Virus record (IMG/VR): IMGVR_UViG_3300042449_001328
Location: 1 to 64,000 of that record
Source of the DNA: a virus
Length of the DNA: 64,000 nucleotides
Reading direction: 5' to 3' (one strand)
Below are positions 1-62,092 of the stretch, in pieces. Every line of letters starts with the position of its first letter. Position 1 is the stretch's first letter. Made by a program: the position numbers and the translations under genes. The notes under the pieces are model-generated. The model was not told where the DNA came from. It did no database searches and saw only the letters and a program-made list of their open reading frames with translations.

Positions 1-187
1 TGCAGGAGAATTGTTGTATCAGTTCTGCGTCCTGATCATCTAGTATCAGATCAAAAGTTTCATCCAATATCCTATCGTCTTTTGCCTCAATAACACAATA
101 GTTATTGTCACCTATATTGAATACCTTGTTTGGTTTAAGCCAAGTGTGAGCAAGATTGTTATCTATTAGGTATTGCGAAATATTCAT
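1..187 (-). CDS. 5' part of a gene running off the window (MNISQYLIDNNLAHTWLKPNKVFNIGD...); possibly a replication gene such as a DNA polymerase
   Basis: Open frame from ATG at 187, overlapping the integrase stop (ATGA), to the window edge. Function guessed only from its position after helicase/primase. Confidence 0.55.
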   Translation of the reverse strand, partial: MNISQYLIDNNLAHTWLKPNKVFNIGDNNYCVIEAKDDRILDETFDLILDDQDAELIQQFSC

Positions 188-996
188 ATTGGCAATTGAA
201 CTTTGGATAATAATTTAGTGGATACATGTGTGTAAATTTCAGTGGTTTTTACATTACTATGCCCTGCTATCTTTTGTATCAACCTTAAATCAGTACCATT
301 TTCTAACAGGTGGGTAAATGAAGAATGCCTTAAATTATGGATACTGGTTTTTGTATCAATGTACTTTTTGTAAATCTGTTGACAGCTTCCTATTGAATAT
401 TTGGGTGAATTCTGGCCATTAAATAAAAATTCTACTGGTTTGTAATTTACAAAATAAAATCTAAGTAGCTTTAATACTGTTTCTGACAATGGAACTATTC
501 TATCCTTTCTACCTTTTGCATTGTTTATATGAATCAACATTCTTTTTGAATCAATATCGTTTATTTTTAAATTAACAATTTCTGACACCCTTAGCCCTAC
601 TGAATAAGCTAGGGTTAGTATCGTCTTATGTTTTAAATTTGGTATAATAGCTATCTTTCCTATTAAATCTTGTTGGTCTATTACCCTAGGCAACTTCTTT
701 TCGCCACGGGGTCTTTTTAGTTTATAAAATTTTTTAGGTTGAGATAATATCTTTTCATAATAAAACTTGATGCAATTAATGATCTGATTTTGTTTTGTTG
801 AAGACAATTCGCCATTGTCCAATAATTTATTCAAATAACCAACTATCTCATCATAAGAAATGTGCCTTACATTTTTATTTTCAAATGAGTTTACAAATTC
901 CTTAAAATAAGACAAATAAACTTTTATAGTGTTTTCTGAATAATTCATTCGTTGAAGTGTGGTAACATAATCTTCAAACAACTTTAAATTTTTCAT
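184..996 (-). CDS. Tyrosine recombinase, integron-integrase-like (SAM-like N-terminal domain plus catalytic domain)
   Basis: Catalytic residues R (GLRVSE), K (AKGRKDR), HxxR (HNLRH), H (AGH), Y (TEIYTH); N-terminal YSENTIKVY. No obvious IntI-specific insertion before box II. Confidence 0.92.
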   Translation of the reverse strand: MKNLKLFEDYVTTLQRMNYSENTIKVYLSYFKEFVNSFENKNVRHISYDEIVGYLNKLLDNGELSSTKQNQIINCIKFYYEKILSQPKKFYKLKRPRGEKKLPRVIDQQDLIGKIAIIPNLKHKTILTLAYSVGLRVSEIVNLKINDIDSKRMLIHINNAKGRKDRIVPLSETVLKLLRFYFVNYKPVEFLFNGQNSPKYSIGSCQQIYKKYIDTKTSIHNLRHSSFTHLLENGTDLRLIQKIAGHSNVKTTEIYTHVSTKLLSKVQLPI

Positions 997-1018
997 ATAG
1001 GATAGTGTTGGTAATCAA

Positions 1019-1213
1019 TTAGTTAAATGGACATTGATATATATGATTGTTGGTGGCAATGCCGCCCCGCTCCAATGGTGCTTCGGGCATGGAAGCTATT
1101 CCTAGCACCGCCCACGCTTCGGGGCGGCACTGTTCGCGCCAACGCGCAAAGGCCGACCCAAGCCCACCAACATGGGGTTTAAAACATAGGGCAACATTTA
1201 GCGCGTTTTTCAT
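1019..1213 (-). CDS. Small cassette ORF (starts in the loop of site 1, crosses the core as ...KPHVGG...)
   Basis: 64 aa ORF with the same geometry as the other cassette ORFs; GC-rich, coding status uncertain. Confidence 0.35.
   Translation of the reverse strand: MKNALNVALCFKPHVGGLGSAFARWREQCRPEAWAVLGIASMPEAPLERGGIATNNHIYQCPFN
1031..1062 (+). other. Putative attI-like primary recombination site
   Basis: Lone GTT core (GTTGGTGGCAATGC at 1049) just upstream of the integrase start, with no preceding hairpin arm. Its complement CCACCAAC (1164-1171) closes the first cassette. Confidence 0.55.
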
Positions 1214-1867
1214 AGGTAGTTTCGTGGGAAGGTTTTAGAATTAATTGCCGCCCACGCGCGAGAAAGAGATAACCCAAACAAACGGGTTTTCATTCCATGA
1301 TTGTTGACCGTTGACTTTTTCCCATAACATTTGCCATGCAAGTTTAGGTGTACTGGATGTTGGTGAGCAAGCCCCTTCCTTGTAGCAATCAGCAATAGAA
1401 ATACCTTGCAGTTTTTCTGCGCTTATATCTTCAATCCTTAACTTTATTCGGCAAGCCTGTTTTGGCATAAAAATGCTTGGTTTCCATCTCCACTCTTCCA
1501 TAGTTTCCCAATCAGGGTCTGTGGCCCTGTAAACATATCCGTTATCTTCTCCAGCAAAATCAACGTATTGCCATGTTTCACGCACCCAAAGTATGTCTCC
1601 AATTTGTCCGTATGGGCATTGTGTTTTGATTGATTCCCACCACTTCGGGTTACTGGCGGTTTCCATCCATCCACGAAACGGTTCCTTTACTATCCTTCTT
1701 GTTTGTGTTTTGCTGCCATCTAAAATAGCCCTTACCATTGACCCAGAAAATAAAATTGGGTGTTCCTTTGCCCGCCCTTCGGCAATTAATTCTAAAACCT
1801 GTTCGTTTTCCATAGTTATTTTATCTGTTTAGTTGCCCTACGATTTTAAACCCCTTATACATTATGC
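1165..1867 (+). repeat. attC-like site 1 with a giant (~635 bp) loop
   Basis: CACCAAC 1165-1171; arm GGGGTTTAAAACATAGGGCAAC 1174-1195 pairs with GTTGCCCTACGATTTTAAACCCC 1832-1854; ATTATGC 1861-1867. Confidence 0.75.
1241..1813 (-). CDS. ASCH/PUA-like phage protein
   Basis: EHPILFSGSMVRAILDGSKTQTRR, CPYG..GD.LWVRETW, WKPSIFMP and W..NPFVWVISF motifs of a widespread phage family. Confidence 0.8.
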   Translation of the reverse strand: MENEQVLELIAEGRAKEHPILFSGSMVRAILDGSKTQTRRIVKEPFRGWMETASNPKWWESIKTQCPYGQIGDILWVRETWQYVDFAGEDNGYVYRATDPDWETMEEWRWKPSIFMPKQACRIKLRIEDISAEKLQGISIADCYKEGACSPTSSTPKLAWQMLWEKVNGQQSWNENPFVWVISFSRVGGN

Positions 1868-2092
1868 GTAATGCTCCGAATACTTCTGTTCAAGTTCAAG
1901 CATTTTATCCCATATCTCTTGGTGGTGGACACTATCCCAAGCACATAATCTTGGACTTTTCTTTTTCTCTTGCAAAAATGCTTTCAGTTCATTGTAACAA
2001 TTAGCACTACGCATAACATCGGCTATACGCAATTGCTCTTCGTATTTTTCAACGGTTTCTTTTGCTTTTAAGTAATCTTCTTTTTTTATCAT
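1862..2092 (-). CDS. Cassette hypothetical protein
   Basis: 76 aa; start lies in the loop of site 2; stop lies in the ATTATGC core. Confidence 0.7.
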   Translation of the reverse strand: MIKKEDYLKAKETVEKYEEQLRIADVMRSANCYNELKAFLQEKKKSPRLCAWDSVHHQEIWDKMLELEQKYSEHYA

Positions 2093-2141
2093 TTTGTTTA
2101 ATTTTTAAGTTCGCAACTGCGTATAGCCGTAGCCGTTAGGC
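2011..2141 (+). repeat. attC-like site 2
   Basis: GCATAAC; CGGCTATACGCAATTGC 2020-2036 / GCAACTGCGTATAGCCG 2113-2129; GTTAGGC 2135. Confidence 0.85.
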
Positions 2142-2145
2142 ACAA

Positions 2146-2385
2146 TTAAACCCAACTCTTCCAATGTGTAGGTGTGTAATAAACATACATACTACCATCA
2201 GGCAACCACCAAAGTTTACCATCAAACTTTAATTCTTGTTCGTTCCTTGAACCGTTTTCATCTTCAATTTTGGTCATCATCACCCTATTTTTTGGTGGAT
2301 GCTCTTCTGAAATTTTTTTCCACATAATAAAATTAACTGTGCCTAACAACGTATATAATGGATACGCCAATAAGCGGTTATACAT
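2146..2385 (-). CDS. Cassette hypothetical protein (DUF551-like, W.....PP...PTHW)
   Basis: MWKKISEEHPP...YTPTHWK resembles the phage DUF551 family; the true start may be the internal Met. Confidence 0.65.
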   Translation of the reverse strand: MYNRLLAYPLYTLLGTVNFIMWKKISEEHPPKNRVMMTKIEDENGSRNEQELKFDGKLWWLPDGSMYVYYTPTHWKSWV

Positions 2386-2434
2386 TTATTTAAGTTTATC
2401 GGTGGCGTACCCATCATATACGCAACCGTTATAG
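2341..2434 (+). repeat. attC-like site 3
   Basis: GCCTAAC; CGTATATAATGGATACGCCA 2350-2369 / TGGCGTACCCATCATATACG 2403-2422; GTTATAG 2428. Confidence 0.85.
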
Positions 2435-2457
2435 GAAATTTTATTTTTCCCATCGCA

Positions 2458-2808
2458 CTACGAAAAGTGCGAGAAAATGAACAGATAAGGTTCTGCAATT
2501 GGTTCATCTTCTTTCAGCTCAAAAACTTCACGGTATTTTGATTTTACCTTTTCTGCGTCTAAATTTTTGAAATCCAAGTGGACAAAATCCCATCCTTCAT
2601 ATTTATCTCCACCGCTTTCAATCCGTATTCCAAATACGTTATATTGTCCACACATTCCATCGCTTACAAGTGTAAATTCTTCGCCTTGATGTCCTTCAAT
2701 CATTGGCAAAAATTTATCATCCGATAAATCAATTTTACCGTTTTCGTTTTTTAGTTCATAAGGTAATTTATACCCGTAAACAATGTAATCTGTTCTATCT
2801 ACTCCCAT
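2458..2808 (-). CDS. Cassette hypothetical protein
   Basis: 116 aa ORF filling the cassette between sites 3 and 4. Confidence 0.75.
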   Translation of the reverse strand: MGVDRTDYIVYGYKLPYELKNENGKIDLSDDKFLPMIEGHQGEEFTLVSDGMCGQYNVFGIRIESGGDKYEGWDFVHLDFKNLDAEKVKSKYREVFELKEDEPIAEPYLFIFSHFS

Positions 2809-2850
2809 TTTTAAATTTGTTTAAGCCAACCCACAAAAAATAAAACTATC

Positions 2851-2947
2851 CTATAACACGGGTTTGGCGTAATGCCACCAGATAGTTTGTGCCTAAATTT
2901 AAAGTTCGTGCAAGGTGGCACTAACGCCAAGCCCGAAATCGTTAGGC
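2851..2947 (+). repeat. attC-like site 4
   Basis: CTATAAC; CGGGTTTGGCGTAATGCCACC 2859-2879 / GGTGGCACTAACGCCAAGCCCG 2914-2935; GTTAGGC 2941. Confidence 0.85.
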
Positions 2948-2960
2948 ACAATAAAATTTG

Positions 2961-3185
2961 CTACCCAACGCACTCCCATTCAACATCAGGAAATTGTTCA
3001 GCAAATCTTTGTTTCTCCTCTGCCTGTCCCTGCTTTACTTCTTTCAATACCTGTTCTTTTGGTATTTCTAAACTTGGCTTATAATTGCTTATACAAAATG
3101 GGTTTCCAGCCCACAAGTTCCAATATTTACGCCCTTTCTTTAACCATGCGTAGTCAGCTATTTGTTCAAATCCTTTAAAATTCAT
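2961..3185 (-). CDS. Cassette hypothetical protein
   Basis: 74 aa ORF filling the cassette between sites 4 and 5. Confidence 0.7.
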   Translation of the reverse strand: MNFKGFEQIADYAWLKKGRKYWNLWAGNPFCISNYKPSLEIPKEQVLKEVKQGQAEEKQRFAEQFPDVEWECVG

Positions 3186-3204
3186 AATCGCAAATTTTAC
3201 AGAT

Positions 3205-3296
3205 GCCTAACATGCGGTAAAAGTAAGCCGCAGAAAGGCTGTTACTAAATTTGAGCAGTCTACAAAGCGGCCTACTCTTACCGCCAACCGTTAGTG
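3205..3296 (+). repeat. attC-like site 5
   Basis: GCCTAAC; GCGGTAAAAGTAAGCCGC 3214-3231 / GCGGCCTACTCTTACCGC 3267-3284; GTTAGTG 3290. Confidence 0.85.
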
Positions 3297-3302
3297 GTAA
3301 TG

Positions 3303-3524
3303 CTATAAACACACACCATTAAATGTGTTCAAATAGTTTTTGAACTTTATATAAACATCAAGCATATCGTCAACATGTATTTGTTGCTTATCAAAAACTA
3401 TTTTAGCACTACCTGTATCTAACACAACATTTGGTGGTGTTACCGTAAAAGCACTACCACTAACAGCAAGTATATTCAATTGCTCACTTTCTTGGTTATT
3501 TTCAATTTTATCTTTCATACCCAC
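3303..3524 (-). CDS. Cassette hypothetical protein
   Basis: 73 aa; start in the loop of site 6; crosses the arm and core as QLNILAVSGS. Confidence 0.65.
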   Translation of the reverse strand: MGMKDKIENNQESEQLNILAVSGSAFTVTPPNVVLDTGSAKIVFDKQQIHVDDMLDVYIKFKNYLNTFNGVCL

Positions 3525-3590
3525 TCTTATTTGTTAATTAAACTTTTGTTTTTCAAAGTCGCAACTAATTATACTTGCAACTCGTTAGCA
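3458..3590 (+). repeat. attC-like site 6
   Basis: CACTAAC; GCAAGTATATTCAATTGC 3466-3483 / GCAACTAATTATACTTGC 3561-3578; GTTAGCA 3584. Confidence 0.8.
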
Positions 3591-3594
3591 GCCA

Positions 3595-3846
3595 TTAAGG
3601 TAGCGTTTCCAATTCATCGTGACTAAATGTTAAACAAGCTATTGTCCCTTGCGGCACTTGTGGACAAAACTCACCCCACATATTCCATGCCTTGCCATCT
3701 TTTGCAACCACTTGACAAGCAATGAATCTATCATCAGGCAATCCTTCAAGTGCCTTTTTAAGAGTTCCAACCGTATGAAAATTAACGGCTGCTAACACAT
3801 TATTTGCGTCAGTGGGGGTTTCGTGCTTTTTAGAATCTGTCTGCAT
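3595..3846 (-). CDS. Cassette hypothetical protein
   Basis: 83 aa; start in the loop of site 7; crosses the core as DANNVLAA. Confidence 0.7.
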   Translation of the reverse strand: MQTDSKKHETPTDANNVLAAVNFHTVGTLKKALEGLPDDRFIACQVVAKDGKAWNMWGEFCPQVPQGTIACLTFSHDELETLP

Positions 3847-3922
3847 AATTTAAAAATTTGTACTGTTAATAATCTTTGGTGGTGTAACGCCCCACCGAAC
3901 GCAAATAATCGTAACGTTACCT
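3790..3922 (+). repeat. attC-like site 7
   Basis: TGCTAAC; ATTATTTGCGTCAGTGGGG / CCCCACCGAACGCAAATAAT (ends 3909); GTTACCT 3916. Confidence 0.8.
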
Positions 3923-3929
3923 GCAAGTG

Positions 3930-4142
3930 CTACATTTCGGTTTCAAATAAACTTGGTGCAGAAAAACTTTTATTAAAATTTCCCACTCTCTTATTTATAA
4001 TTTCAAAATACTTTTCGTCAATCTCATAACTCACAGTATCAAAACCTAATTCATTTGCAACTTTGCTTGTCGTTCCGCTTCCTCCAAACGGGTCAATAAT
4101 TGTTTCGCCTTCCTTTGCAGTTATCTGTATAAGATGGGTGTT
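3930..4142 (-). pseudogene. 5'-truncated DNA N4/N6-methyltransferase fragment
   Basis: Manual translation IQITAKEGETIIDPFGGSGTTSKVANELGFDTVSYEIDEKYFEIINKR...ETEM* (motif I DPFxGSGTT); in-frame stop upstream and no start codon. Confidence 0.8.
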
Positions 4143-4253
4143 TCAAACGCCCCCGCGCTGGTTTAATTTTAAAAAAGTTTTAGTTTGTATTTCATATTTA
4201 AGTTTGTGCTATGCCTGTTTCAGCAGCTACACTTGATACATTAGTGGCAAGTG

Positions 4254-4412
4254 CTACATATTGCTATCCAAAAGTTTTATGCTTCTGTATATCGGTATAA
4301 ATAAAAGCCAATAGGTTGTTACAAGATGTACCTCTAAATGAGATTTATCTTTAAAACCAGCATCAAAACTTTTCACATACATTTTTCTTTTGTGTTCTGT
4401 TCTTTTTATCAT
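4254..4412 (-). CDS. Small cassette protein (52 aa, below the ORF-track cutoff)
   Basis: MIKRTEHKRKMYVKSFDAGFKDKSHLEVHLVTTYWLLFIPIYRSIKLLDSNM* fills the cassette 4240-4444. Confidence 0.65.
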   Translation of the reverse strand: MIKRTEHKRKMYVKSFDAGFKDKSHLEVHLVTTYWLLFIPIYRSIKLLDSNM

Positions 4413-4437
4413 TTTCGTTTAATTTAACCGCACCAGC

Positions 4438-4571
4438 CACTAACATTGCATTGCAAAAAGCAGGGCTGACGTAATGCTTTCAACAATGGGAATACTATTA
4501 AACTTCACCTATAACGCATTGGGCAGACGTATTCCAATTCCCCTGCCTTCTGCAATGCTTTGCCGTTAGCG
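4438..4571 (+). repeat. attC-like site 9 (site 8 survives only as a right half, ATTAGTG at 4240)
   Basis: CACTAAC; GCATTGCAAAAAGCAGGG 4448-4465 / CCCTGCCTTCTGCAATGC 4541-4558; GTTAGCG 4565. Confidence 0.85.
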
Positions 4572-4577
4572 GCAACC

Positions 4578-4793
4578 CTAAACGACCGCAGTAAACGTGG
4601 TTAAAGATTTACGAACGGTTACTTCTTCGCCTTTTTCGACTTCATTGTAAGCAAGAATAGCTTTTGCCTTTCCTTTGGTAATTATACCACTTGCCCAAGT
4701 TTCATCTTGATGGGTAAGTTGCATTCTAAATTTCCCTTTTCGTTGAGATACTACATCGTAAATCTTTCCAACTTCTAAATTTTGATTTTCCAT
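4578..4793 (-). CDS. Cassette hypothetical protein
   Basis: 71 aa ORF filling the cassette 4565-4828. Confidence 0.7.
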   Translation of the reverse strand: MENQNLEVGKIYDVVSQRKGKFRMQLTHQDETWASGIITKGKAKAILAYNEVEKGEEVTVRKSLTTFTAVV

Positions 4794-4899
4794 TTTATTT
4801 TGATTTGTGAAGAAGGGCAGCCGCTAACAACGTGCTTGTGCCATTTAAAAATGCGTCAAAGTTCAGTGCCTTTAATCAAGTTCGGTGAGCAAAATAAAT

Positions 4900-5289
4900 T
4901 TAAACAACCCCACCGCACTCCTTCGTAGAAAGTTCGTGTTGCAATTGAAAGTACACGTCAAAGAGTAATTCAATTTCCTTTGCCCGTTCGACAATTTTTC
5001 CTTGTATAATCTCACGGAACTTGTCATAGTTTTCAGGCTCTATTTTATTATGCCAAGAGTGTTTCCATGTGTCCATATCAATTACTATTTTGATAAGTTC
5101 TTTTAAGGGGTCATCACCAAAACAATTTGGTTTCTCCCACCTTAATTCAAACCCGTCTTTGATAATGTACTCTTTGTCTCCTGAAAACGGTCTTACAATT
5201 TCGTAACGTTTCGCAGTCCCTTCAATTGTTGTACCTCTAAGGCCAACACCAATTTTACTAAGTTGGTTGATAAATTCTAAATGATCCAT
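4900..5289 (-). CDS. Hypothetical protein in the array
   Basis: 129 aa ORF. Confidence 0.7.
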   Translation of the reverse strand: MDHLEFINQLSKIGVGLRGTTIEGTAKRYEIVRPFSGDKEYIIKDGFELRWEKPNCFGDDPLKELIKIVIDMDTWKHSWHNKIEPENYDKFREIIQGKIVERAKEIELLFDVYFQLQHELSTKECGGVV

Positions 5290-5608
5290 CGCTCAAGTTG
5301 TTTAAATTTATTTTGTTTAGTATTTCAAATTAATATCGTGACACACAATCCAAAGCCTTGCTATCCGTGCCTAGTTTCGGGTTGGGTGCGCCAGCTGCTA
5401 ACAACGTGTTTGCCTCATGGCTGAAAGTGCTATTTGATATTTTTGTTTTCATCTATAAAATTTATCTGTTCAAAAATCTATCCGTTACCCACCGCATTAG
5501 AAACTACTAACTCATTTCCGGTGTGCTTCGTTTCTTTTTCCACTTGGCGGTATCATGTCTATTTTGCGCTTTACTCATCTCTATTTATTTAGTTCGTGTT
5601 CGGCCATT

Positions 5609-5863
5609 TTACTGACACATATTTGCGGCTACATTAGTTGTAATTCTACTCAACACCATTCTGTTTAAGATACTCATTGAACATACCTTTCTTTTAAGTC
5701 CTTCAATCATATAATCTTCTAACTGCTTGTTAAGTTGAGAAGAAAGCCTACCTATAACATCCGCTATAAGAATATTTGTTCTTTCTGCATTCATTGGTTG
5801 TAATTTAAAGTTAAGTAGTTCTAAATCCGCGTAATTGAAAAAGCGTCTGAGTTCGTATTTCAT
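5609..5863 (-). CDS. Probably chimeric or degenerate cassette ORF
   Basis: Crosses core 5752 as ILIADVIGR; the flanking cores are not complementary. Confidence 0.35.
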   Translation of the reverse strand: MKYELRRFFNYADLELLNFKLQPMNAERTNILIADVIGRLSSQLNKQLEDYMIEGLKRKVCSMSILNRMVLSRITTNVAANMCQ

Positions 5864-6008
5864 AAGTCAGTCCATATAGGTGTAGCCACAAAATTGTAAT
5901 CTCAATCGTTTACTTTTACAAAATGAGAATCGCCAGTCATTTTCATCAAAGCCGTAAAGGTCTCCTCTGTAAAGAATAAACTCGCATAGCCACTTTCCAT
6001 CTTGGTTA

Positions 6009-6224
6009 CTACAACAAAGGAATTTTGTGTATAAGTGTTTCATAATTTCGTTTACATTTGTTAGTGGCAGTTAACTCACCGCCAACATTGTGTTTGAGTA
6101 ATTTTCGTTCACGTTCCAAAACAACAGCTTCATCAAGTAATGAAACTATATATCTAACATCAATCATTGATACTTCGCCAATTTCTCCAGCTATCAATAT
6201 TTGTTCTTTAGTATATTTTTTCAT
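6009..6224 (-). CDS. Array-distal small ORF coupled to the primase stop
   Basis: ATG overlaps the primase TGA; crosses the cores as HNVGGELTATN. Confidence 0.55.
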   Translation of the reverse strand: MKKYTKEQILIAGEIGEVSMIDVRYIVSLLDEAVVLERERKLLKHNVGGELTATNKCKRNYETLIHKIPLL

Positions 6225-7195
6225 AAATAATCTAAGTTTATTTGCATAAAATTAACACTTTTTGTCATAAGTTCCAATGATTGTTCCTCATTTATATCTC
6301 CAGGGTCAAATCCGTTTAAATGAGCTACCCTTACCTCAAAATGGGTTGATAGGTATGCAGCTATTGTTTTTACTTTATCCAAAACGTCAGCTTCAAACCA
6401 TAACCAAATGACAGTCAAGCCTTTATCCTTTAGTAGTTGAACTTGTTGTTCACTTATCTTAGCACCAAATGTAGCCACGCACTTTAACCAATCTTGAGTG
6501 TGTAACTGTAGATTATAATCTGTCTTTGTCTTTGACAATATACCTTCCACTAGGATTACATCAGTTGTTTTGCCTTTTATTATTTCATCGTATCCAAACA
6601 GCATTTTACTGAAATCACTCATCGAGTTCTCATAACGTAGGTACTTTTTGCCCCCTGTTTTTTTTATTTCTTCATTGTAAGCATCTATCCATGCTTTGCT
6701 TTTTATAGACCTTGACACATATCCTGTTATCTTGCCTTCCATTTCAACTAGGAAAGTAATGTAGTCTTTCTTTAGTCTTGATACTCCTATCTTATATTGC
6801 TCGAATTGATAGGACTGCATTCCTCTTTCGTTTTGAAGATATTCGTTTTCAAATACCCTCTTCCATCCTACAGGAGGTTGAACTTCTGGTAATTCTTGTT
6901 GCTGTATTATGTCTTCACTTGTTTCAAATACATCTAGCAATAATCCTTCTGGGTCTATTTCTCTTTCTTGTACAAATTCTTTAAATTTATTTAAGTGTTT
7001 TAAAAGTGTGTATATATTCCCCGTGAAGCCACATTTGGACTTTCTGAAGCAACTGAACGGGTGGTTATTTTCTACAATAGAAATTCCAAACTCATCATGA
7101 CCACACTGAGGGCATAACCCGTAAATATCTTTACCGTCAGAACTGGGTCTTGGATTGGATATGAGTTGCTGCAACTGGTCTTTTGTGAGTTTCAT
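6221..7195 (-). CDS. DNA primase (Zn finger + TOPRIM)
   Basis: CPQCG...C...C zinc finger; VILVEG TOPRIM motif; DPGD. Confidence 0.85.
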   Translation of the reverse strand: MKLTKDQLQQLISNPRPSSDGKDIYGLCPQCGHDEFGISIVENNHPFSCFRKSKCGFTGNIYTLLKHLNKFKEFVQEREIDPEGLLLDVFETSEDIIQQQELPEVQPPVGWKRVFENEYLQNERGMQSYQFEQYKIGVSRLKKDYITFLVEMEGKITGYVSRSIKSKAWIDAYNEEIKKTGGKKYLRYENSMSDFSKMLFGYDEIIKGKTTDVILVEGILSKTKTDYNLQLHTQDWLKCVATFGAKISEQQVQLLKDKGLTVIWLWFEADVLDKVKTIAAYLSTHFEVRVAHLNGFDPGDINEEQSLELMTKSVNFMQINLDYL

Positions 7196-7422
7196 TGCTC
7201 TAATATTCTCTTGTTAACAATTAAACAAGCATTTTCAAAAGTAAAACCTTTGTCTATTAAATCTTTGCGAAAACATCGCTTTTCTAAAACTCGTTTTGCT
7301 GATTCACTCCGTTCTCCCAAATCTAAGTTTGCGATGGCTTGTAGTCTTTCAGGGCTTCCCATACTACCAATACTGTTTATGTAGCTGTTGATGCTACCGT
7401 ATTTTTCAATTAAATGATCCAT
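7192..7422 (-). CDS. Hypothetical protein
   Basis: 76 aa, coupled to its neighbours. Confidence 0.6.
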   Translation of the reverse strand: MDHLIEKYGSINSYINSIGSMGSPERLQAIANLDLGERSESAKRVLEKRCFRKDLIDKGFTFENACLIVNKRILEQ

Positions 7423-7424
7423 AA

Positions 7425-7868
7425 TTATTGTTTGCTTAATTTTGTTTCATTTGATTTTATTCTAACTTTTAAGCTGTGTAGTGGGCATGTTACCCATCCA
7501 TCGCTATCGCATTTTTCGTTTGACAAATCGTATCCTTTATGTGGACATTTTAATTTTTCTAAATTTTTGTAATTTAATTTTGAATTAGATATAAAGGTGT
7601 CTGGTGTTCTATACAAATGTTCTTTAAAATACATCCTTCTTTTTCGGTAACATATTTTTATTAAAAAATTTGGATCGTTTTCAATTCTAGTGGTATTTAT
7701 TTTTTTCAATAAATTCTTATGATGTTTTTTGCTTATAAACCTAAAATCTACATGATAGTGTGGTGTCATTTGACCGTTCTCTTTATCGTGATGCAAATGA
7801 TTGTATATAGGCACAATTAGCCTTTCAGGAAAAGATAATACAGCGCAAGGGACTTTGTGTTTTATCAT
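7425..7868 (-). CDS. Protein with a C-terminal Rieske-like [2Fe-2S] motif
   Basis: CPHKGYDL...VTCPLH (CxH...CxxH). Confidence 0.65.
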   Translation of the reverse strand: MIKHKVPCAVLSFPERLIVPIYNHLHHDKENGQMTPHYHVDFRFISKKHHKNLLKKINTTRIENDPNFLIKICYRKRRMYFKEHLYRTPDTFISNSKLNYKNLEKLKCPHKGYDLSNEKCDSDGWVTCPLHSLKVRIKSNETKLSKQ

Positions 7869-9250
7869 TTTTGCTTTGGAGCGTTCTTTATTATCTTGTT
7901 ATTGATGGGGTCCCAAAATCTTTTGTTGGTCTCTTGTATGTCTATAAATCTGCCTTTATTTCTATCTTGTGCTATATGATAAGTAGATTCCCATGAAAGT
8001 ATTTTTTGAAACCTGAATGCCTCTTCATGTATGCGCATTATGTCTTTATCATTTTCATCGTCTGTTTGATTTAAAGTAATTGTATAAGCAAAGGGGTCTA
8101 CTGTAGCTTTTAAATTTGAAATATTCTCTCTTGTGATAACAAAATTAGGATCGTTGTAATCTTTTTTCTCTATACTAGATGCTTGAGTGGCAGTGGCGCA
8201 AAATATTTTAAACTCAGTTGCTATGTTGACAATTTTTTCCGCAACAGCTAATTTTTTAGCCCTCTCCCCCTCTGCATTAGTTCCATATCTCTTTCCGTCA
8301 CCTGGATCAAATTTTTCAAGATAATCAAAAATTGCCCATTTTATATTATACTCCTTCATTAAATCCAATATAGCTTGCCTACACTCTGCTATGGAAGCAG
8401 AATTAAATTGTTCATAAGAAACAATGAATATTTCCCCACATTGAGCTAGGAAAGATTTTCTAGCCTTTTCAATAGTCTCTACATCTTTGCCTGTCAAATC
8501 CCCTTTCCTTATATCCATCATAGGCACACCAGTCCACATTGCATCATAAGCATCTTCAACTTCTGATTTTGTACCTTCAGCTTGAAAATGAATTCCATTA
8601 TGCCCCCTGAAAGCCAAATTGTGACCTATTGATCTCAAACAAGTACTTTTACCTACTCCTTTTCTAGCAATCACTAACATTGCCCTTCCAGGTTCAACCC
8701 CTCCCTTAGTGTGATAATCAAAAGCAGGTATGCCAATAGGCCACTTTACATTTGTAAAATCCCTTTGCTTTCTTTCTTGTTGCCGTCTATCAAAATCAGA
8801 AAATACTCTAGTGTGAAGTTTTGAAGTTAAACAAAATGAGTTTATCTCTTTGCTCTCCTTCTCAAGCAGCAACATAGCTTTCTCATGTTCCTGCTTATTG
8901 TACATCTCCTTAACGTCTTCATGTAGTTTTTGAAACCTGCCTTTCTTGATGAAAGATTCAAAGGACTGCATGATCTGGTCTTTACTATCATGTATTGAAG
9001 TTTCCCTAATGTTGTTCAGTACATTTATCAAGGAAGGTTTTTGAGGCAAGTTTTGAGATAATGTCCCTAAAGTAGGGATTTTTGAATGTATGCCATGATA
9101 GTCAAATATGTATTTAAAAACTTCTTTATACTCCTCTCCTTTTATGAAAGAATAATTCAAATGCTGTTTGACAATCTCTGTCACATCTTGACTAGATAGA
9201 CATAGCTTTGCCAGCTCGTTGAGATAGTTGCTTGAAAGTTTATCTGACAT
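7865..9250 (-). CDS. Replicative DnaB-like helicase
   Basis: Walker A ARKGVGKST, catalytic E in QAEG, Walker B IFDYLE, TATQ. Confidence 0.88.
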   Translation of the reverse strand: MSDKLSSNYLNELAKLCLSSQDVTEIVKQHLNYSFIKGEEYKEVFKYIFDYHGIHSKIPTLGTLSQNLPQKPSLINVLNNIRETSIHDSKDQIMQSFESFIKKGRFQKLHEDVKEMYNKQEHEKAMLLLEKESKEINSFCLTSKLHTRVFSDFDRRQQERKQRDFTNVKWPIGIPAFDYHTKGGVEPGRAMLVIARKGVGKSTCLRSIGHNLAFRGHNGIHFQAEGTKSEVEDAYDAMWTGVPMMDIRKGDLTGKDVETIEKARKSFLAQCGEIFIVSYEQFNSASIAECRQAILDLMKEYNIKWAIFDYLEKFDPGDGKRYGTNAEGERAKKLAVAEKIVNIATEFKIFCATATQASSIEKKDYNDPNFVITRENISNLKATVDPFAYTITLNQTDDENDKDIMRIHEEAFRFQKILSWESTYHIAQDRNKGRFIDIQETNKRFWDPINNKIIKNAPKQK

Positions 9251-9852
9251 TAGTACCCTCTGTTTTTAAACAATATTGGATTGACCGCTTTCAATATGCT
9301 TTTGCAAGATTTCTTTTGGAGACACGTTACGCAAACAGGACTTCTATGATTGTATAGAGTGGTCAAGGTAGCACAAGAATAAAGCCTTGCTTCTGTGTCT
9401 GGCAACCTGCTTTTATTGGCCTCTTCTATTGGGTTTGTGGAAAGATAGTTTATCTTTTCTGACTGCTCTTCTTTTACCAAAGCTGCCCTTAGTTCATCTA
9501 GGTTTATGGAGTTCTCTCTCAACCACTCTTTTGTATAGTAGTCTTCGCCATCTTTTCTTTCAATGAATCTTTTCAACAGCTTTTTCCCCGCTATCCAGTT
9601 CAATGAGATATTCCTTTTCAAGTGTTTAGAATCAAAATAGTGAAATCCAAAACTAAAGTAGTCTATCAGATAATTTATCCCAACTACTTCAGGCCCATAT
9701 TGGACTGACAATAGTTTGACAAAATTCTCGACTACTTTTCTTTGATTGGCTACGCTGAGATCTAATTTAAACGAGCTCTTGTACTTCTTGTTATAGAAGA
9801 ACTCAAACAGCCTAACGATGTGACGTTCGCTGTCTCTTCTCTGCTCGCTCAT
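9250..9852 (-). CDS. Conserved hypothetical protein with a C-terminal Cys cluster
   Basis: 200 aa; C...CxxC....C; adjacent to the helicase. Confidence 0.7.
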   Translation of the reverse strand: MSEQRRDSERHIVRLFEFFYNKKYKSSFKLDLSVANQRKVVENFVKLLSVQYGPEVVGINYLIDYFSFGFHYFDSKHLKRNISLNWIAGKKLLKRFIERKDGEDYYTKEWLRENSINLDELRAALVKEEQSEKINYLSTNPIEEANKSRLPDTEARLYSCATLTTLYNHRSPVCVTCLQKKSCKSILKAVNPILFKNRGY

Positions 9853-10051
9853 CGTATATCTTTATCATTTCATTGATGCCAGCGGCCAGTGCTTGAAAGT
9901 CTTCTGGCTGGATTCTGAGGACGGTATCCCCCTCTTTGTTGACTACATCAATTGTAGAACCTTCGTCTATCTCCCAAGTGGCGTCTTCAAAATCATCATT
10001 GGGGTCAGTGGGGTCTATATCCCTATACAAAATACCAGCTTTTAGGATCAT
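9812..10051 (-). CDS. Hypothetical protein
   Basis: 79 aa acidic ORF. Confidence 0.6.
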   Translation of the reverse strand: MILKAGILYRDIDPTDPNDDFEDATWEIDEGSTIDVVNKEGDTVLRIQPEDFQALAAGINEMIKIYDERAEKRQRTSHR

Positions 10052-29934: not shown

Positions 29935-31902
29935 TTAAGAAATTGGGTCCAAGAGCAAGCCCGAAAACAGAAGAAAACTAACTTCATAGTTGGGTATCAC
30001 ACCGTAATTTATAAAGTAAGCATCTCCCTGCACTGTTACTGTAACATTCTGGAAACTGATAATAAGATTATCTAACTGATCTGTCGCTACTTTGCTTGTC
30101 AAGTATGCTTCAACCCATGTTTTTACATCTTCAGCAGAAAGAGTGTTTCTGTTTGCACCGTTTGGTTTTTTAAGCAAAGTCCTCTTACCATTAATTATCA
30201 ATTCTTTGTTCAACTGTCTAACGATACGAGCAAGTTGTTTACTTGAAGTGCTTCCGTCTGGATTGACTAGATATGAATTGATCTGTAAGGTGTTTACTCC
30301 TTTCACTACTTCAAATGCTGAACCGTCCGCTCTTGTCATCAAAACTCCAGCGTCTAGTCCCGCAATAGCCTCATTGTCTCTCAACTGATGTACAACTCCA
30401 TCTACGCCTATGTTCTTAAATGTCAAAGGTACTTGAGGTGCAAGTCCCGCCTCTCTGCCCATCATTACAGCTGCGTGGTAGATTGATTGATAGTTCTTTA
30501 ACAGTCTACCGTTGAAATCGGTTCTTTTTACCCCTGAATGAACTAAGGTAACAAATTGGCTATTGAACGCTTGTGCCATATTCACAGAACTTGTAACACC
30601 TGAATTCCACTTAGAACTATCATTGCCTCCACCAATATATACATCTGGTTTGATTTTAGCTGCGGTAGCATAAGCCTGAATTGCTAAGTTGTTTGCTGAC
30701 CTTGCGTTATCCCCCCAATTGTCTGCTAAGATAAAATCATAAGTGCTTCCAGCAATTGCGTCAAGGGCTTGTGTCAAATACTGAGATCCATAAGTATCTG
30801 TACCGCCTGTAAACATTCTAAGAGCAGAGTTGGAACTCAAATCTCCTGCATTCACCAATCCTGTACCTGCTATTGAACTTGATTGTCTTTCAAAGTAAGA
30901 CTGGAAGGTAGGGTCAGAATCCATCCACGCAATCAAAGTAGAAATGTTTGAGAACTCAGGCGACTGCGCAACTACTTCTGCGGTTGTGCTTAACTCGCTC
31001 ACTCCATCATAAGGAGTGCCGTCACTAATGTCTGTACTTAGCCCTCTGAAAGTTCCCCTTGAGAACTGCATAATAAACCTTGTTGGGTCTATCACACCAG
31101 CAATCATTCTTGCAGCATATCCTCTGGTCAATCTTGTTCCTGTTACACCGCCTGTATATGCTCCAGATATTGATCCTGCACCTGTGGCTGTTGCGACCAA
31201 TACTGGTGTGATTGTGTTGGCTGCTATTCCAAGCCCCCTTGGAGCTGAAAATGTTACAGTAGTACTTGTGCTGGACACTACTGCCGATATACCTAATGAA
31301 TTGATTGAATTAACAAGACCTGCTACAACGGATGCTATATTGTCCCCTACTTGGGTAGCGTATGTGGCAATTGTTTCACCGCTAGATGTGATAGTGAAAG
31401 TACTTGTTCCTACAGTACCTGCGTTTGAAATGGTTACAGTAGCTGCACCTCTAGTTTCATCGCCCATAACACCATTCCCTACCCTGCCTTCTGCTCTATT
31501 TCTTAAAGTAAAAGTTCCTCCGTTACCACCTCCACCAGTGAACGTATAAGATACTGAACTTGGTGTAGTCAATGCTGCTTTGATGAATGTCAAAGATGAA
31601 GCACCTTGAGTAGCTCCTCCTCCTGGAAAGAATATTGGACTAGATAAAAACCAAAAAATACCTCCGTGTTGATGTGCTTGTGCCGAACCTACGTCTGTGA
31701 ATGTGTATATTGAATCTAGGTTTTGTTTTAACGTTCCAGCTATACCAGAACCTCCGCCAAAAAAGCGGGAGCTGCCCGTGTCGATAATTAAACAATTCCC
31801 GAACTCTAATGCTACGGCTGGATTTTTTATACCGGATTTTACTGTTGAGTAAGCTCCGGGAAGAGAAATTTTACGTCCATCGAAAAAAACTGATGTAGCC
31901 AT
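29935..31902 (-). CDS. Tail sheath protein
   Basis: N-terminal F.G.....PGAYS; C-terminal PLTFK, GVNT motifs. Confidence 0.88.
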   Translation of the reverse strand: MATSVFFDGRKISLPGAYSTVKSGIKNPAVALEFGNCLIIDTGSSRFFGGGSGIAGTLKQNLDSIYTFTDVGSAQAHQHGGIFWFLSSPIFFPGGGATQGASSLTFIKAALTTPSSVSYTFTGGGGNGGTFTLRNRAEGRVGNGVMGDETRGAATVTISNAGTVGTSTFTITSSGETIATYATQVGDNIASVVAGLVNSINSLGISAVVSSTSTTVTFSAPRGLGIAANTITPVLVATATGAGSISGAYTGGVTGTRLTRGYAARMIAGVIDPTRFIMQFSRGTFRGLSTDISDGTPYDGVSELSTTAEVVAQSPEFSNISTLIAWMDSDPTFQSYFERQSSSIAGTGLVNAGDLSSNSALRMFTGGTDTYGSQYLTQALDAIAGSTYDFILADNWGDNARSANNLAIQAYATAAKIKPDVYIGGGNDSSKWNSGVTSSVNMAQAFNSQFVTLVHSGVKRTDFNGRLLKNYQSIYHAAVMMGREAGLAPQVPLTFKNIGVDGVVHQLRDNEAIAGLDAGVLMTRADGSAFEVVKGVNTLQINSYLVNPDGSTSSKQLARIVRQLNKELIINGKRTLLKKPNGANRNTLSAEDVKTWVEAYLTSKVATDQLDNLIISFQNVTVTVQGDAYFINYGVIPNYEVSFLLFSGLLLDPIS

Positions 31903-41964: not shown

Positions 41965-43470
41965 CTATGTAGATGCTACAGTATAAGGGCCTACGTTTAA
42001 AAATCTCACTATTTTGCGCTGTGCAAAAACTACGGGTGTCCCAAAGAGGAACGCGATAAAACGCTTGCTCATTCCAAGTGTAGCTAAATCCAGCTTACCT
42101 AGAGGTGCCAATTGTTTGAAGCTCAATACGTCTTCTGACATTTCAGTACAGAATGCTTCTTCTGTATCAGGCAAGAACCTGTTGCGATCTCTAACTACGT
42201 TAGCTGCCGCTCCGTCAAATCCAGCAGTTCTTTGTGCTACCGATACTTTGAAGATAGGGAAGAAAACAATATTATCTGTAGTAGCGTTCACAGAAGGTGT
42301 AATCTTAGAACGGTAGATTTGATAACCAGTTGCTGGGTTTGCACCACCTGCGTCTGCAAAAGTCAAATCAACTGACTGACCTGCTGTCAAAGTGGTCTTA
42401 GTGGTGTTGTTTAACACTCGCAAAGAGCTTTCACCAAAACGGTTCAAAGCTGATACTGCGTAGAAAACTGCACCCAAAGCACCTGTATGAGTTTCTCCAG
42501 CCACAAACCTTGATTGACCTGCGTCTGCTACTAGGGCTGCGCCTGTAGCAGTTGGTGTGTTAGGGGCTTTTGCTGAAGTGGCTGTTGCAGATAAAGTTTT
42601 GGCTGCATCTTTCTTCATGCCTTTATCGTGCTTCAAAGCTACAGTACCGAATGTTGTGTCAATACCTTTGATTGGTGAACCTGGAGAAATTGCTTGTGGA
42701 GAAGCATTAACCAAGATACGTTGACGTTGGAAGTAGTCTTTGGCAAGACCTGCAATTACAGAAGGAGGTGCAAACAAAGCATCTACGTTACCGAAAGCAT
42801 CGTCTACTTGGATAGAAGCGTCCTCTACTGTTTTTTGGTTCAAAGAAGCACCACGCAAGTCAATGACCGCAGGTGATGTCAAGTAGTCATTCAATGAAGT
42901 GAATGCTGCGCCTGTACCTGTTGCACCGTGCTGTGCGTAAATTCCATTGAATTCTTGACCGATAATAGAAGCGTTCGCTTTGGTCAAGCTGCTGTTGGCT
43001 TTGCGAACAACCCACATTGTCTTGTTCTCAACTTCTTTGCGCATTGCGTCTACGTAAGAGCGAACAAGTTGGGCTTGGTAAGTTACCTCTCCAGTTACCT
43101 GAATATACTTTACCAATTCTGCTTTACGGATGTAAGTAGAATCTTCTACGTCTGAAAGTTCACCCTCAGAATAGAAACCTCCACGATCTGAACCGTAAGA
43201 AGATAATTGCAAATATTCCTCAACAGTGTTGTAAGCTGTTTGCTTAGGAATGGAATTCCAAAGCACGATGTCCTTCATGCGGAAATCGAGTAATTTTAAA
43301 GTAGTCTCTAAGCTCTCAGCTTTAAGAGGCTCTTGACCAAGTAGTTGGTTTGTAGTGTCACGACCAGTTACCGTTCCAGCTTGCATAGCTTTTAATAGGC
43401 TATCTACCTCCTGTTCGCTTCCGAAACCTCCGAAACCACTATCTTGATATGATGATAGATTTACGTCCAT
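41965..43470 (-). CDS. Major capsid protein (SPO1/Twort-like)
   Basis: PLKAESLETTLK, NTVEEY, EFNGI, VIDLRGASL; follows the protease and scaffold genes. Confidence 0.9.
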   Translation of the reverse strand: MDVNLSSYQDSGFGGFGSEQEVDSLLKAMQAGTVTGRDTTNQLLGQEPLKAESLETTLKLLDFRMKDIVLWNSIPKQTAYNTVEEYLQLSSYGSDRGGFYSEGELSDVEDSTYIRKAELVKYIQVTGEVTYQAQLVRSYVDAMRKEVENKTMWVVRKANSSLTKANASIIGQEFNGIYAQHGATGTGAAFTSLNDYLTSPAVIDLRGASLNQKTVEDASIQVDDAFGNVDALFAPPSVIAGLAKDYFQRQRILVNASPQAISPGSPIKGIDTTFGTVALKHDKGMKKDAAKTLSATATSAKAPNTPTATGAALVADAGQSRFVAGETHTGALGAVFYAVSALNRFGESSLRVLNNTTKTTLTAGQSVDLTFADAGGANPATGYQIYRSKITPSVNATTDNIVFFPIFKVSVAQRTAGFDGAAANVVRDRNRFLPDTEEAFCTEMSEDVLSFKQLAPLGKLDLATLGMSKRFIAFLFGTPVVFAQRKIVRFLNVGPYTVAST

Positions 43471-60878: not shown

Positions 60879-60885
60879 ATTTTTG

Positions 60886-61300
60886 TGGACCTGAGCGGAT
60901 TCGAACCGCTGTCCAGATAGCATACAATACCACGATTACTTACAGCTTGTTTGGTTTAAGTCCAACAACTCACTTTTAGGGCTACCAGCAGTTTTTCAAC
61001 TACCTACAACCTCCACCATTCGATTGCCATTACTTCTTTTGTGTCATATCGAAAATCCCCTTTGTTTTACTCATTAAGCAGCAAGCTCTAATTCTTGCTC
61101 TGCTTCAACTCTATTAAAGTTAAAGGCTGAGAAATCAAAACCTACTTTTGCATCTTGACGATTGCCAATAGTACCACCTAGGATACTGTTAGCGATTAAT
61201 TGATTGTCAATTGTTTGTGTATGCATATTTTCAGTAGGTACAGCATACTTCCCTACGCTGATTGTGTTACCAATTACTACTGTCAATTCCTGTCAGGCCC
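60886..61300 (-). ncRNA. ssrA: tmRNA
   Basis: 5' GGGCCTGACAGGAATTGACAG; 3' AGCGGTTCGAATCCGCTCAGGTCCA with a G3:U wobble; internal tag frame ending ...ELELAA-TAA-TGA. Confidence 0.9.
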
Positions 61301-62006: not shown

Positions 62007-62019
62007 TTAATGTTTTTAG

Positions 62020-62092
62020 ATCCGATGGACGGGTTCGAACCGACAACCTTCTGCTTACAAGGCAGTAGCTCTTCCACATGAGCTTCATCGGA
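62020..62092 (-). tRNA. tRNA-Thr(UGU), slightly atypical
   Basis: TCCGATG/CATCGGA acceptor, GCTC/GAGC D stem, CTGC-CTTGTAA-GCAG, GTCGG-TTCGAAC-CCGTC; CCA not encoded. Confidence 0.8.

Follow-up and report, generated by a model that had tools for sequence, protein, structure and literature searches.

The attC sites of integrons are recombined as folded single strands and resolved by replication. The I2 helix of the integron integrase (IntI) and extrahelical bases of the attC site together allow folded single strands to be recombined and the right strand to be picked (PMC7790495, PMC5027507). The I2 helix, which docks the extrahelical bases, is presented as the innovation enabling recombination of single-stranded DNA (ssDNA) (PMC7790495), and evolutionary intermediates are lacking according to PMC7790495 and PMC5027507. 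In the attC bottom strand, the AAC triplet of the 5' arm is the cleavage place, and among 263 mobile-integron attC sites the bottom strand contains more G:T pairs (1.24 vs 0.39 per site) and folds better by 2.12 kcal/mol (PMC5027507); a G:T bias of the folding strand is as such a type of evidence already published for classical attC sites. Clusters of attC sites without integron integrase (CALINs) are reported from virulent phages, e.g., Polaribacter phage P12002L (PMC9892861). In case of the CTX phage, an Xer-type enzyme without I2 exchanges one pair of strands at dif between folded ssDNA and a duplex target (PMC3442271). Here, an array of gene cassettes separated by imperfect hairpins is described, which is located upstream of a tyrosine recombinase gene in a 64,000-nt stretch of phage DNA (positions 1 to 64,000 of IMG/VR record IMGVR_UViG_3300042449_001328; this whole stretch is referred to as the window). 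The hairpin sites of this and related arrays carry G·T wobbles on one strand at few fixed positions, and these wobbles most probably label the strand undergoing folding and recombination.

Upstream of the recombinase gene, small open reading frames (ORFs) stand in a row on the same (minus) strand, with the hairpins lying between them. Eight sites were analyzed, i.e., seven with short loops (coordinates from TAAC to GTTA inclusive, Table 1) and the long-range site 1. Arms were compared by strand-symmetric local alignment of the left arm with the reverse complement of the right arm, scoring both transition types alike, and site 1 was read by eye. This reproduced exactly the mismatch count from which a preliminary description had deduced selection for folding of the minus strand: 12 arm mismatches are G·T on the minus strand (11 in the seven short sites, one in site 1) versus one of the opposite type, the sole plus-strand wobble being a C·A at position 6 of site 4 (positions are counted inward from the 3' GTTA box). 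With a composition null of ~0.52 to 0.48 calculated from the strand skews, the ratio of 12:1 has a one-sided binomial p of ~0.003, with the caveat that 8 of the 12 mismatches represent a single conserved feature (position 15) counted eight times and are not independent.

A larger set of sites was obtained with a finder for TAAC and GTTA boxes separated by 50-220 nt with complementary arms, which is blind to the type of wobble. It retrieved 225 sites as compared to 16 in shuffled sequence, including all seven short sites of the window; requiring exact boxes, it misses decayed sites beyond 4568 and long-loop sites such as site 1. As in attC, these sites are imperfect inverted repeats with AAC in one outer box and GTT in the other. 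From 184 unique phage sites, 176 with a common geometry were kept (on the recombinase strand, 4-7 nt separate TAAC from the stem at the 5' side as compared to 0-4 nt at the 3' side); almost all of them are located upstream of the recombinase gene, and their boxes are 71-220 nt apart (median 125). The eight dropped sites have a polarity of 13 vs 8. Absence of bias in a larger site set had been named beforehand as the result that would speak against strand selection, but the bias persists: the 169 sites outside the window contain 305 wobbles on the recombinase strand vs 96 on the other (binomial p 2e-26). For all 176 sites the ratio is 316 vs 97, composed of 278 G·T, 38 T·G, 36 A·C and 61 C·A (5' arm·3' arm). 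Counted per site, wobbles of the minus type are in excess in 143 and those of the other kind in 7, with 26 ties.

The wobbles occupy fixed positions. Position 15 is occupied by G·T in 167 of 177 columns, corresponding to 110 of 119 non-redundant clusters, and in every site of the window. At the boxes, TAAC is followed by G in 97 % and GTTA is preceded by T in 99 % of the sites, resulting in a G·T next to the box stem (114 of 119 non-redundant clusters). Positions 10 and 12 are G·T in 33 and 41 sites, respectively (each about one fifth), and position 13 is T·G in 15. At least one flaw at positions 9-13, i.e., a wobble, mismatch or bulged base, is found in 135 of the 176 sites and exactly one in 120. 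A further wobble becomes apparent if boxes are paired as in an excised cassette, that is the 3' box of one site with the 5' box of the next: -7/+10 is T·G in 114 of 145 such pairs, with 68-90 % pairing over -1 to -6 and 79 % at -8, as compared to only 30-57 % pairing between the two boxes of the same site in the array. All fixed non-Watson-Crick places (conserved in at least 79 %) are wobbles, and all are on one and the same strand. The stems themselves covary, e.g., position 19 is G:C in 53, C:G in 52, A:T in 17 and T:A in 45 sites with 4 non-pairs.

Sites 1, 4 and 7 had also been described as containing an extra A in the right arm of the plus strand, 11-12 nt from its outer end, corresponding to an extrahelical T of the minus strand. 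The extra base was found in all three (by eye in site 1), but it is not common in the family. Bases bulging opposite positions 8-13 were observed on the AAC arm of 28 of the 176 sites (T in 17) and on the other arm of 6, and they are interchangeable with a wobble or mismatch at positions 9-13. The extrahelical T is one variant of the second helix flaw beside the invariant wobble at position 15. Where attC has two to three extrahelical bases opposite the AAC triplet, the present sites have a fixed G·T wobble at a conserved place. Likewise, the central unpaired spacer of attC, comprising ~5-6 nt per arm, has no equivalent: the spacer (box-adjacent G/T included) is 5 nt in 128 and 6 nt in 32 sites on the AAC arm, and 1 nt in 75 and 2 nt in 77 sites on the other arm.

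Folding energies of both strands, proposed as a check in the preliminary description, differ clearly for DNA. In the window, the minus strand is lower in six of the seven short sites (Table 1). Across the 176 sites, the minus-type strand is on average 2.97 kcal/mol lower, and it is the lower one in 165; control windows between sites have an asymmetry of -1.10 kcal/mol (Mann-Whitney p 6e-17). More G:T pairs and stabler folding of one and the same strand are thus shared with attC. If RNA parameters are applied, folding of the arms is favoured by 7.0 kcal/mol on the wobble strand, and the whole-site asymmetry of -4.66 kcal/mol is not clearly above that of coding controls (-3.67; p 0.054).

Cassette boundaries were located by means of homology breakpoints, i.e., starts and ends of high-scoring segment pairs between different arrays in an all-against-all BLAST of the loci. 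Homology starts at -2 to 0 of the 5' TAAC box in 36 of 258 segment pairs and ends at +4/+5 in 7; in the same set, no start and two ends coincide with the 3' box. For example, a stretch of 315 nt is 100 % identical at different array positions of two loci (L001:6562-6876 and L010:2131-2445) and has ATAACG at both bounds. A second cassette, shared by L002 and L018 with 84 % identity, shows the same boundary behaviour. Hence, the cassettes are mobile with a crossover in the AAC/GTT box as known for attC, the crossover being at the 5' TAAC box of the minus strand. Since homology breaks at this box, the hairpin moves together with the ORF located behind it on the recombinase strand. In the phages, the longest ORF is encoded on the wobble strand in 140 of 145 cassettes; its start is located just downstream of the hairpin in 80 of these 140 and in the hairpin loop in 47, the latter fitting a hairpin that travels with the following ORF.

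The favoured explanation, to which we assign a probability of about 0.6, is that the minus strand represents an analogue of the attC bottom strand, which would fold as ssDNA and be recombined by the adjacent I2-less enzyme, with the wobbles as a built-in code for the choice of the strand. Each cassette starts at the TAA/C box of the minus strand (which is also the coding strand of the recombinase) and is headed by an imperfect hairpin. The fixed wobbles of this strand comprise a G following TAAC that pairs with the T preceding GTTA, the G·T at position 15, in most cases an additional flaw within 9-13 (G·T, T·G, mismatch or bulged T) and, in the box stem of the excised cassette, T·G 7 bp outward; on the plus strand, the same places turn into non-pairing A·C. 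The recombinase may recognise the folded hairpin, aided by distortions due to the wobbles, and would cut AA/C in the 5' arm of the hairpin.

Several observations weigh against this explanation. If positions 10, 12 and 15 are excluded, the bias is gone (74 vs 97), and exclusion of the six positions 6, 10, 12, 13, 15 and 22 yields 57 vs 50. Since G·T does not exceed A·C at any but these three positions, there is no sign of a general thermodynamic filter for one strand, and the polarity does not amount to general wobble tolerance but lies in three fixed stem positions. Two recurrent flaws run against the polarity, i.e., C·A at position 6 (33 sites) and A·C at position 22 (13 sites). Site 4 folds better on the plus strand (-19.6 vs -17.7 kcal/mol), and coding control windows also fold better on the wobble strand, by 1.10 (DNA) and 3.67 (RNA) kcal/mol. 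Folding of site 1 would demand closure of a 636-nt loop; a simple folding argument accounts neither for this site with its gene in the loop nor for the opposite flaws at positions 6 and 22. Unpaired extras (4 nt vs 0-1 nt by the box, occasional bulges) are located on the AAC arm, which is the reverse of the attC rule. Furthermore, the recombinase is devoid of I2, which is in the literature the innovation for ssDNA recombination (PMC7790495), and the conserved G and T could also be read as base pairs in duplex DNA.

The restriction to fixed positions also bears on a purely mutational origin, i.e., strand-asymmetric deamination or purine loading of the coding strand generating more plus-strand A·C without selection. 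The plus strand has negative GC and AT skews throughout the window, and in control windows between sites, too, folding of the minus-type strand is slightly favoured, as such an origin would have it. However, these skews predict no more than ~52 to 48, and because the bias vanishes without positions 10, 12 and 15, there is no diffuse mutational signal. In addition, the same wobble positions recur in phage and bacterial sites of unrelated sequence. The positional analysis refutes a composition or mutation bias, leaving it a practically negligible probability.

Whether the wobble strand reflects DNA or RNA can be judged from bacterial relatives. I2-less homologues with 40-50 % identity to the recombinase are encoded in many Bacteroidota and Ignavibacteria-type chromosomes (bacterial genome scan). 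With boxes relaxed to AAC/GTT and spans up to 260 nt, the finder retrieved 100 sites in these loci vs 10 in shuffles, 79 of them being unique and of family geometry. These 79 have G·T beside the boxes in 60 cases (A·C in none) and G·T at position 15 in 53. The strand of the ORF could be called confidently for 60 sites and is opposite to the wobble strand in 50 and the same in 10; among the 44 of these with G·T at 15/16, it is opposite in 44, i.e., the canonical integron arrangement of an ORF on the top strand with attC downstream, which the phages do not have. A stricter finder gave 21 of 24 opposite. Thus, which strand bears the wobbles depends on the site and not on the mRNA. As side observations among loci L075-L095 and L107-L127, Flavobacteriia-type loci have their sites downstream of the recombinase gene and the wobbles on the strand opposite to it, and Ignavibacteria-type loci have their sites upstream with the wobble strand being the gene strand, as in classical integrons and phages.

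This orientation disfavours folding of the mRNA as the cause, which had been offered as an alternative or additional role and according to which hairpins are selected on the minus strand for translation control, processing or stability, with G·U being tolerated. The coincidence of wobble and coding strand in the phage cassettes, ORF starts within loops and the better RNA folding of the arms would all agree with it. Besides the 44 opposite bacterial cases, however, an RNA stem under selection should display an excess of G·U-type over A·C-type flaws beyond the three fixed positions, which is not observed, and the RNA asymmetry of whole sites does not clearly exceed the coding background. Moreover, the neighbours of T·G at -7/+10 are paired only if the boxes are combined as in an excised cassette, and cassette boundaries at the boxes reveal a function at the DNA level. 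An RNA-level origin of the wobbles is accordingly regarded as highly improbable.

The predicted recombinase is in NCBIfam most similar to XerA_Arch (186.6 bits, under the cut-off of 220), and it matches the integron integrase family TIGR02249 in two separate stretches with 161.6 bits, i.e., below the cut-off of 265. Aligned with the solved VchIntIA (2a3v), residues 14-175 correspond to 13-174 and residues 213-267 to 260-314, leaving ~48 IntI residues between the two stretches without counterpart. Judged from this alignment, the phage protein is devoid of the IntI-specific insertion in the catalytic domain (I2 helix region). Its best solved relative is an XerC-like protein (4a8e, E 1.7e-37). 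Relatives with 45-63 % identity are encoded on ~46 viral contigs (among 69 loci fetched), each adjoining an array as a dedicated I2-less recombinase. A tblastn search against 50,697 phage records matched 54 records, every one with less than 60 % identity; best matches among cultured phages are 34-37 % identical (Polaribacter phages Freya and Leef, Cellulophaga phage Ingeline). The 36 %-identical integrase is located at positions 50 to 4147 in the otherwise similar records (44-49 kb) of Polaribacter phages Freya_1 to Freya_10, a shift that may be due to variable upstream content or merely to different record starts.

The dif site consists of two non-identical recombinase-binding arms, one for XerC and one for XerD. 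By analogy, conserved G and T may represent contacts of two non-identical recombinase arms in double-stranded or cruciform DNA, their compatibility with wobble pairing being incidental. The I2-less enzyme with its closest relatives among Xer-type recombinases acting on duplex DNA would be in line with such a role, as would be a polarity limited to few fixed positions (as for recognition letters) and the semi-conserved C·A of opposite polarity at position 6. On the other hand, a duplex mechanism has no need for stems of ~20 bp that covary freely with complementarity kept. Cassette-mate boxes remain complementary. A classical core site, with two arms of 11-13 bp around a centre of 6-8 bp, is not compatible with boxes typically 125 nt apart, and the local TAAC-G-GTT arrangement of the consensus would put the cuts only 3 bp apart. 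Finally, the fixed places are all one-strand wobbles, though 8 of the 12 possible non-complementary combinations are of the transversion type. Recognition in the duplex is thus considered unlikely, though it is the most serious rival to folding and recombination of the minus strand as ssDNA.

Compared with integrons, the system resembles attC in its imperfect inverted repeats with AAC/GTT boxes at the cassette boundaries, in a crossover within the AAC box that the better-folding strand has at its 5' end, in more G:T and lower folding energy on that strand (PMC5027507), and in cassette ends that are complementary to one another instead of to the adjacent half-box. It shares with integrons a unique junction of attI-like appearance by the recombinase gene, which is encoded on the folding strand. 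It differs in that wobbles are fixed in position, whereas those of attC are scattered as far as PMC5027507 describes them; in the lack of conserved extrahelical bases; in a lopsided spacer with its 4 nt (vs 0-1 nt) on the AAC arm, as opposed to extrahelical bases on the opposite arm in attC; in phage cassettes with the ORF on the folding strand behind the hairpin, the latter often holding the ORF start; and in an enzyme without the I2 insertion. CALINs likewise combine attC-like sites with small cassettes in phage genomes, including DNA methyltransferase cassettes (PMC9892861); a truncated methyltransferase fragment is present in the window at ~3930-4142. They are, however, described in PMC9892861 as devoid of any integrase and were assayed with bacterial IntI1, whereas here an I2-less recombinase adjoins the array. 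The CTX/Xer precedent demonstrates that I2 is in principle dispensable (PMC3442271), but there the enzyme stems from the host and its substrate is one attP hairpin of a filamentous ssDNA phage, with neither a cassette array nor AAC/GTT boundaries nor a known wobble code. A literature search found no published I2-less integron-like system in phages or Bacteroidota, which is not proof of absence.

The sites thus behave integron-like (AAC boundaries, complementary ends, one-strand G:T bias), yet they bear another strand mark and are accompanied by an enzyme without I2. They may belong to a widespread integron-like family of Bacteroidota and phages, the I2-less enzyme of which picks the strand by fixed G·T wobbles rather than by extrahelical bases, either as an independent solution or as a surviving pre-I2 stage; the phages would then have flipped their cassette genes to the folding strand, with the site also heading the gene. 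The wobble code predicts the active strand and the three or four deciding base pairs and can be challenged by mutation. If confirmed, it would constitute a second route to structure-specific recombination and would explain the exchange of small accessory genes among large Bacteroidota phages.

Table 1. Recombinase gene, array end, non-coding element and hairpin sites at the start of the window (wobble positions counted from the 3' box on the minus strand)
Feature	Position	Strand	DNA folding energy, minus/plus (kcal/mol)	Remarks
Tyrosine recombinase, Xer/IntI-like	184..996	minus		270 aa; Pfam Phage_integrase and SAM_4
attI-like array end	1032..1052	minus		Terminal box CAAC (TAAC in relatives), then TAnTATATAT toward recombinase
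GC-rich (~65-70 %) structured non-coding element	1057..1167	minus		Cargo position of cassette 1
Site 1	1168..1864	minus		Variant boxes GTTG 1168-1171 and TAAT 1861-1864 (minus-strand reading)
Site 2	2014..2138	minus	-17.3/-16.6	G·T at 15 as sole arm flaw; start codon of ORF 1862..2092 in loop
Site 3	2344..2431	minus	-16.7/-13.2	G·T at 10 and 15; start of ORF 2146..2385 in loop
Site 4	2854..2944	minus	-17.7/-19.6	C·A at 6 (opposite polarity), bulged T at 12, G·T at 15
Site 5	3208..3293	minus	-17.8/-16.1	G·T at 10 and 15
Site 6	3461..3587	minus	-14.6/-7.8	Transversion at 11, T·G at 13, G·T at 15; start of ORF 3303..3524 in loop
Site 7	3793..3919	minus	-19.0/-15.7	Bulged T at 12, G·T at 15, bulged C at 21; start of ORF 3595..3846 in loop
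Site 8	4441..4568	minus	-20.9/-18.1	G·T at 12 and 15

All arrays end ~55 nt before the start of the recombinase gene with a TAAC box and a conserved TAnTATATAT block. When the 110 nt preceding the recombinase start were aligned by MAFFT, the block YTAAC-TAnTATATAT proved to be common to the window and 28 loci, and this array end represents an attI-like junction. Read on the wobble strand, the order of cassettes, attI-like site and recombinase gene corresponds to that of a classical integron viewed from the bottom strand.

Site 1 is formed by arms at 1174-1195 and ~1832-1854, the loop of which encloses a complete ORF of 190 aa (1241..1813). As read by eye, it has a T preceding the 3' box, an A at -7, a G·T at -15 and a single extra T in the 5' arm of the minus strand. 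Within the loop, a perfect inner inverted repeat of 21 nt (1230-1250/1780-1800) overlaps both ends of this ORF. A similar perfect pair of 19 nt (4890-4908/5297-5315) surrounds ORF 4900..5289.

The GC-rich element adjacent to the array end was considered as a conserved attI or platform RNA, which is ruled out by its absence upstream of the recombinase in 28 other loci; it is window-specific cargo and not part of the platform. The region 1040-1180 has DNA folding energies of -32.4 (plus) and -37.4 kcal/mol (minus). In an Rfam scan of window positions 1-10000 with E up to 1, neither the hairpins nor the GC-rich element matched any family.

Contigs of four lake metagenome runs mapped on 900-6500 display breaks within and between sites, which suggests that several array variants share one platform. 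In two of the four runs, the region 900-1273 reaches a summed depth 3-8 times as high as most cassette bins. Contig joints (1172 to 4173, 1868 to 4132, 3557 to 3879 and 4905 to 5300) have sides of at most 37 nt with unknown letters between, and none falls cleanly on the crossover box; a clean excision junction was not found in the contigs of these four metagenomes. The GC-rich element occurs in these contigs with variant letters at 1098 and 1104. Since its summed depth is 113-178 (two runs) as compared to ~8-11 for the cassettes, this element, or a close relative, is far more abundant than the phage. DNA of the phage was present in 24 public runs, all of DNA and none of RNA, which has no bearing on expression.

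In one of the related loci (L009:17731-20245), a second run of six sites of the same orientation is located 7-10 kb downstream of the recombinase gene, besides the upstream array. In the window, a DNA methyltransferase is represented on the minus strand at 3930-4142 by its C-terminal part alone, including a DPFGGSGTT-type motif (by eye); this is a truncated cassette remnant. Phage origin of the window is evident from a major head protein (ORF 41965..43470; phrog_752, E 1e-65), a tail sheath protein is encoded at 29935..31902 and a DnaB-like helicase at 7865..9250. In addition, ARAGORN predicted on the minus strand a tmRNA-like gene (60885-61300) with the tag peptide EAEQELELAA and a tRNA-Thr(TGT) at 62019-62092.

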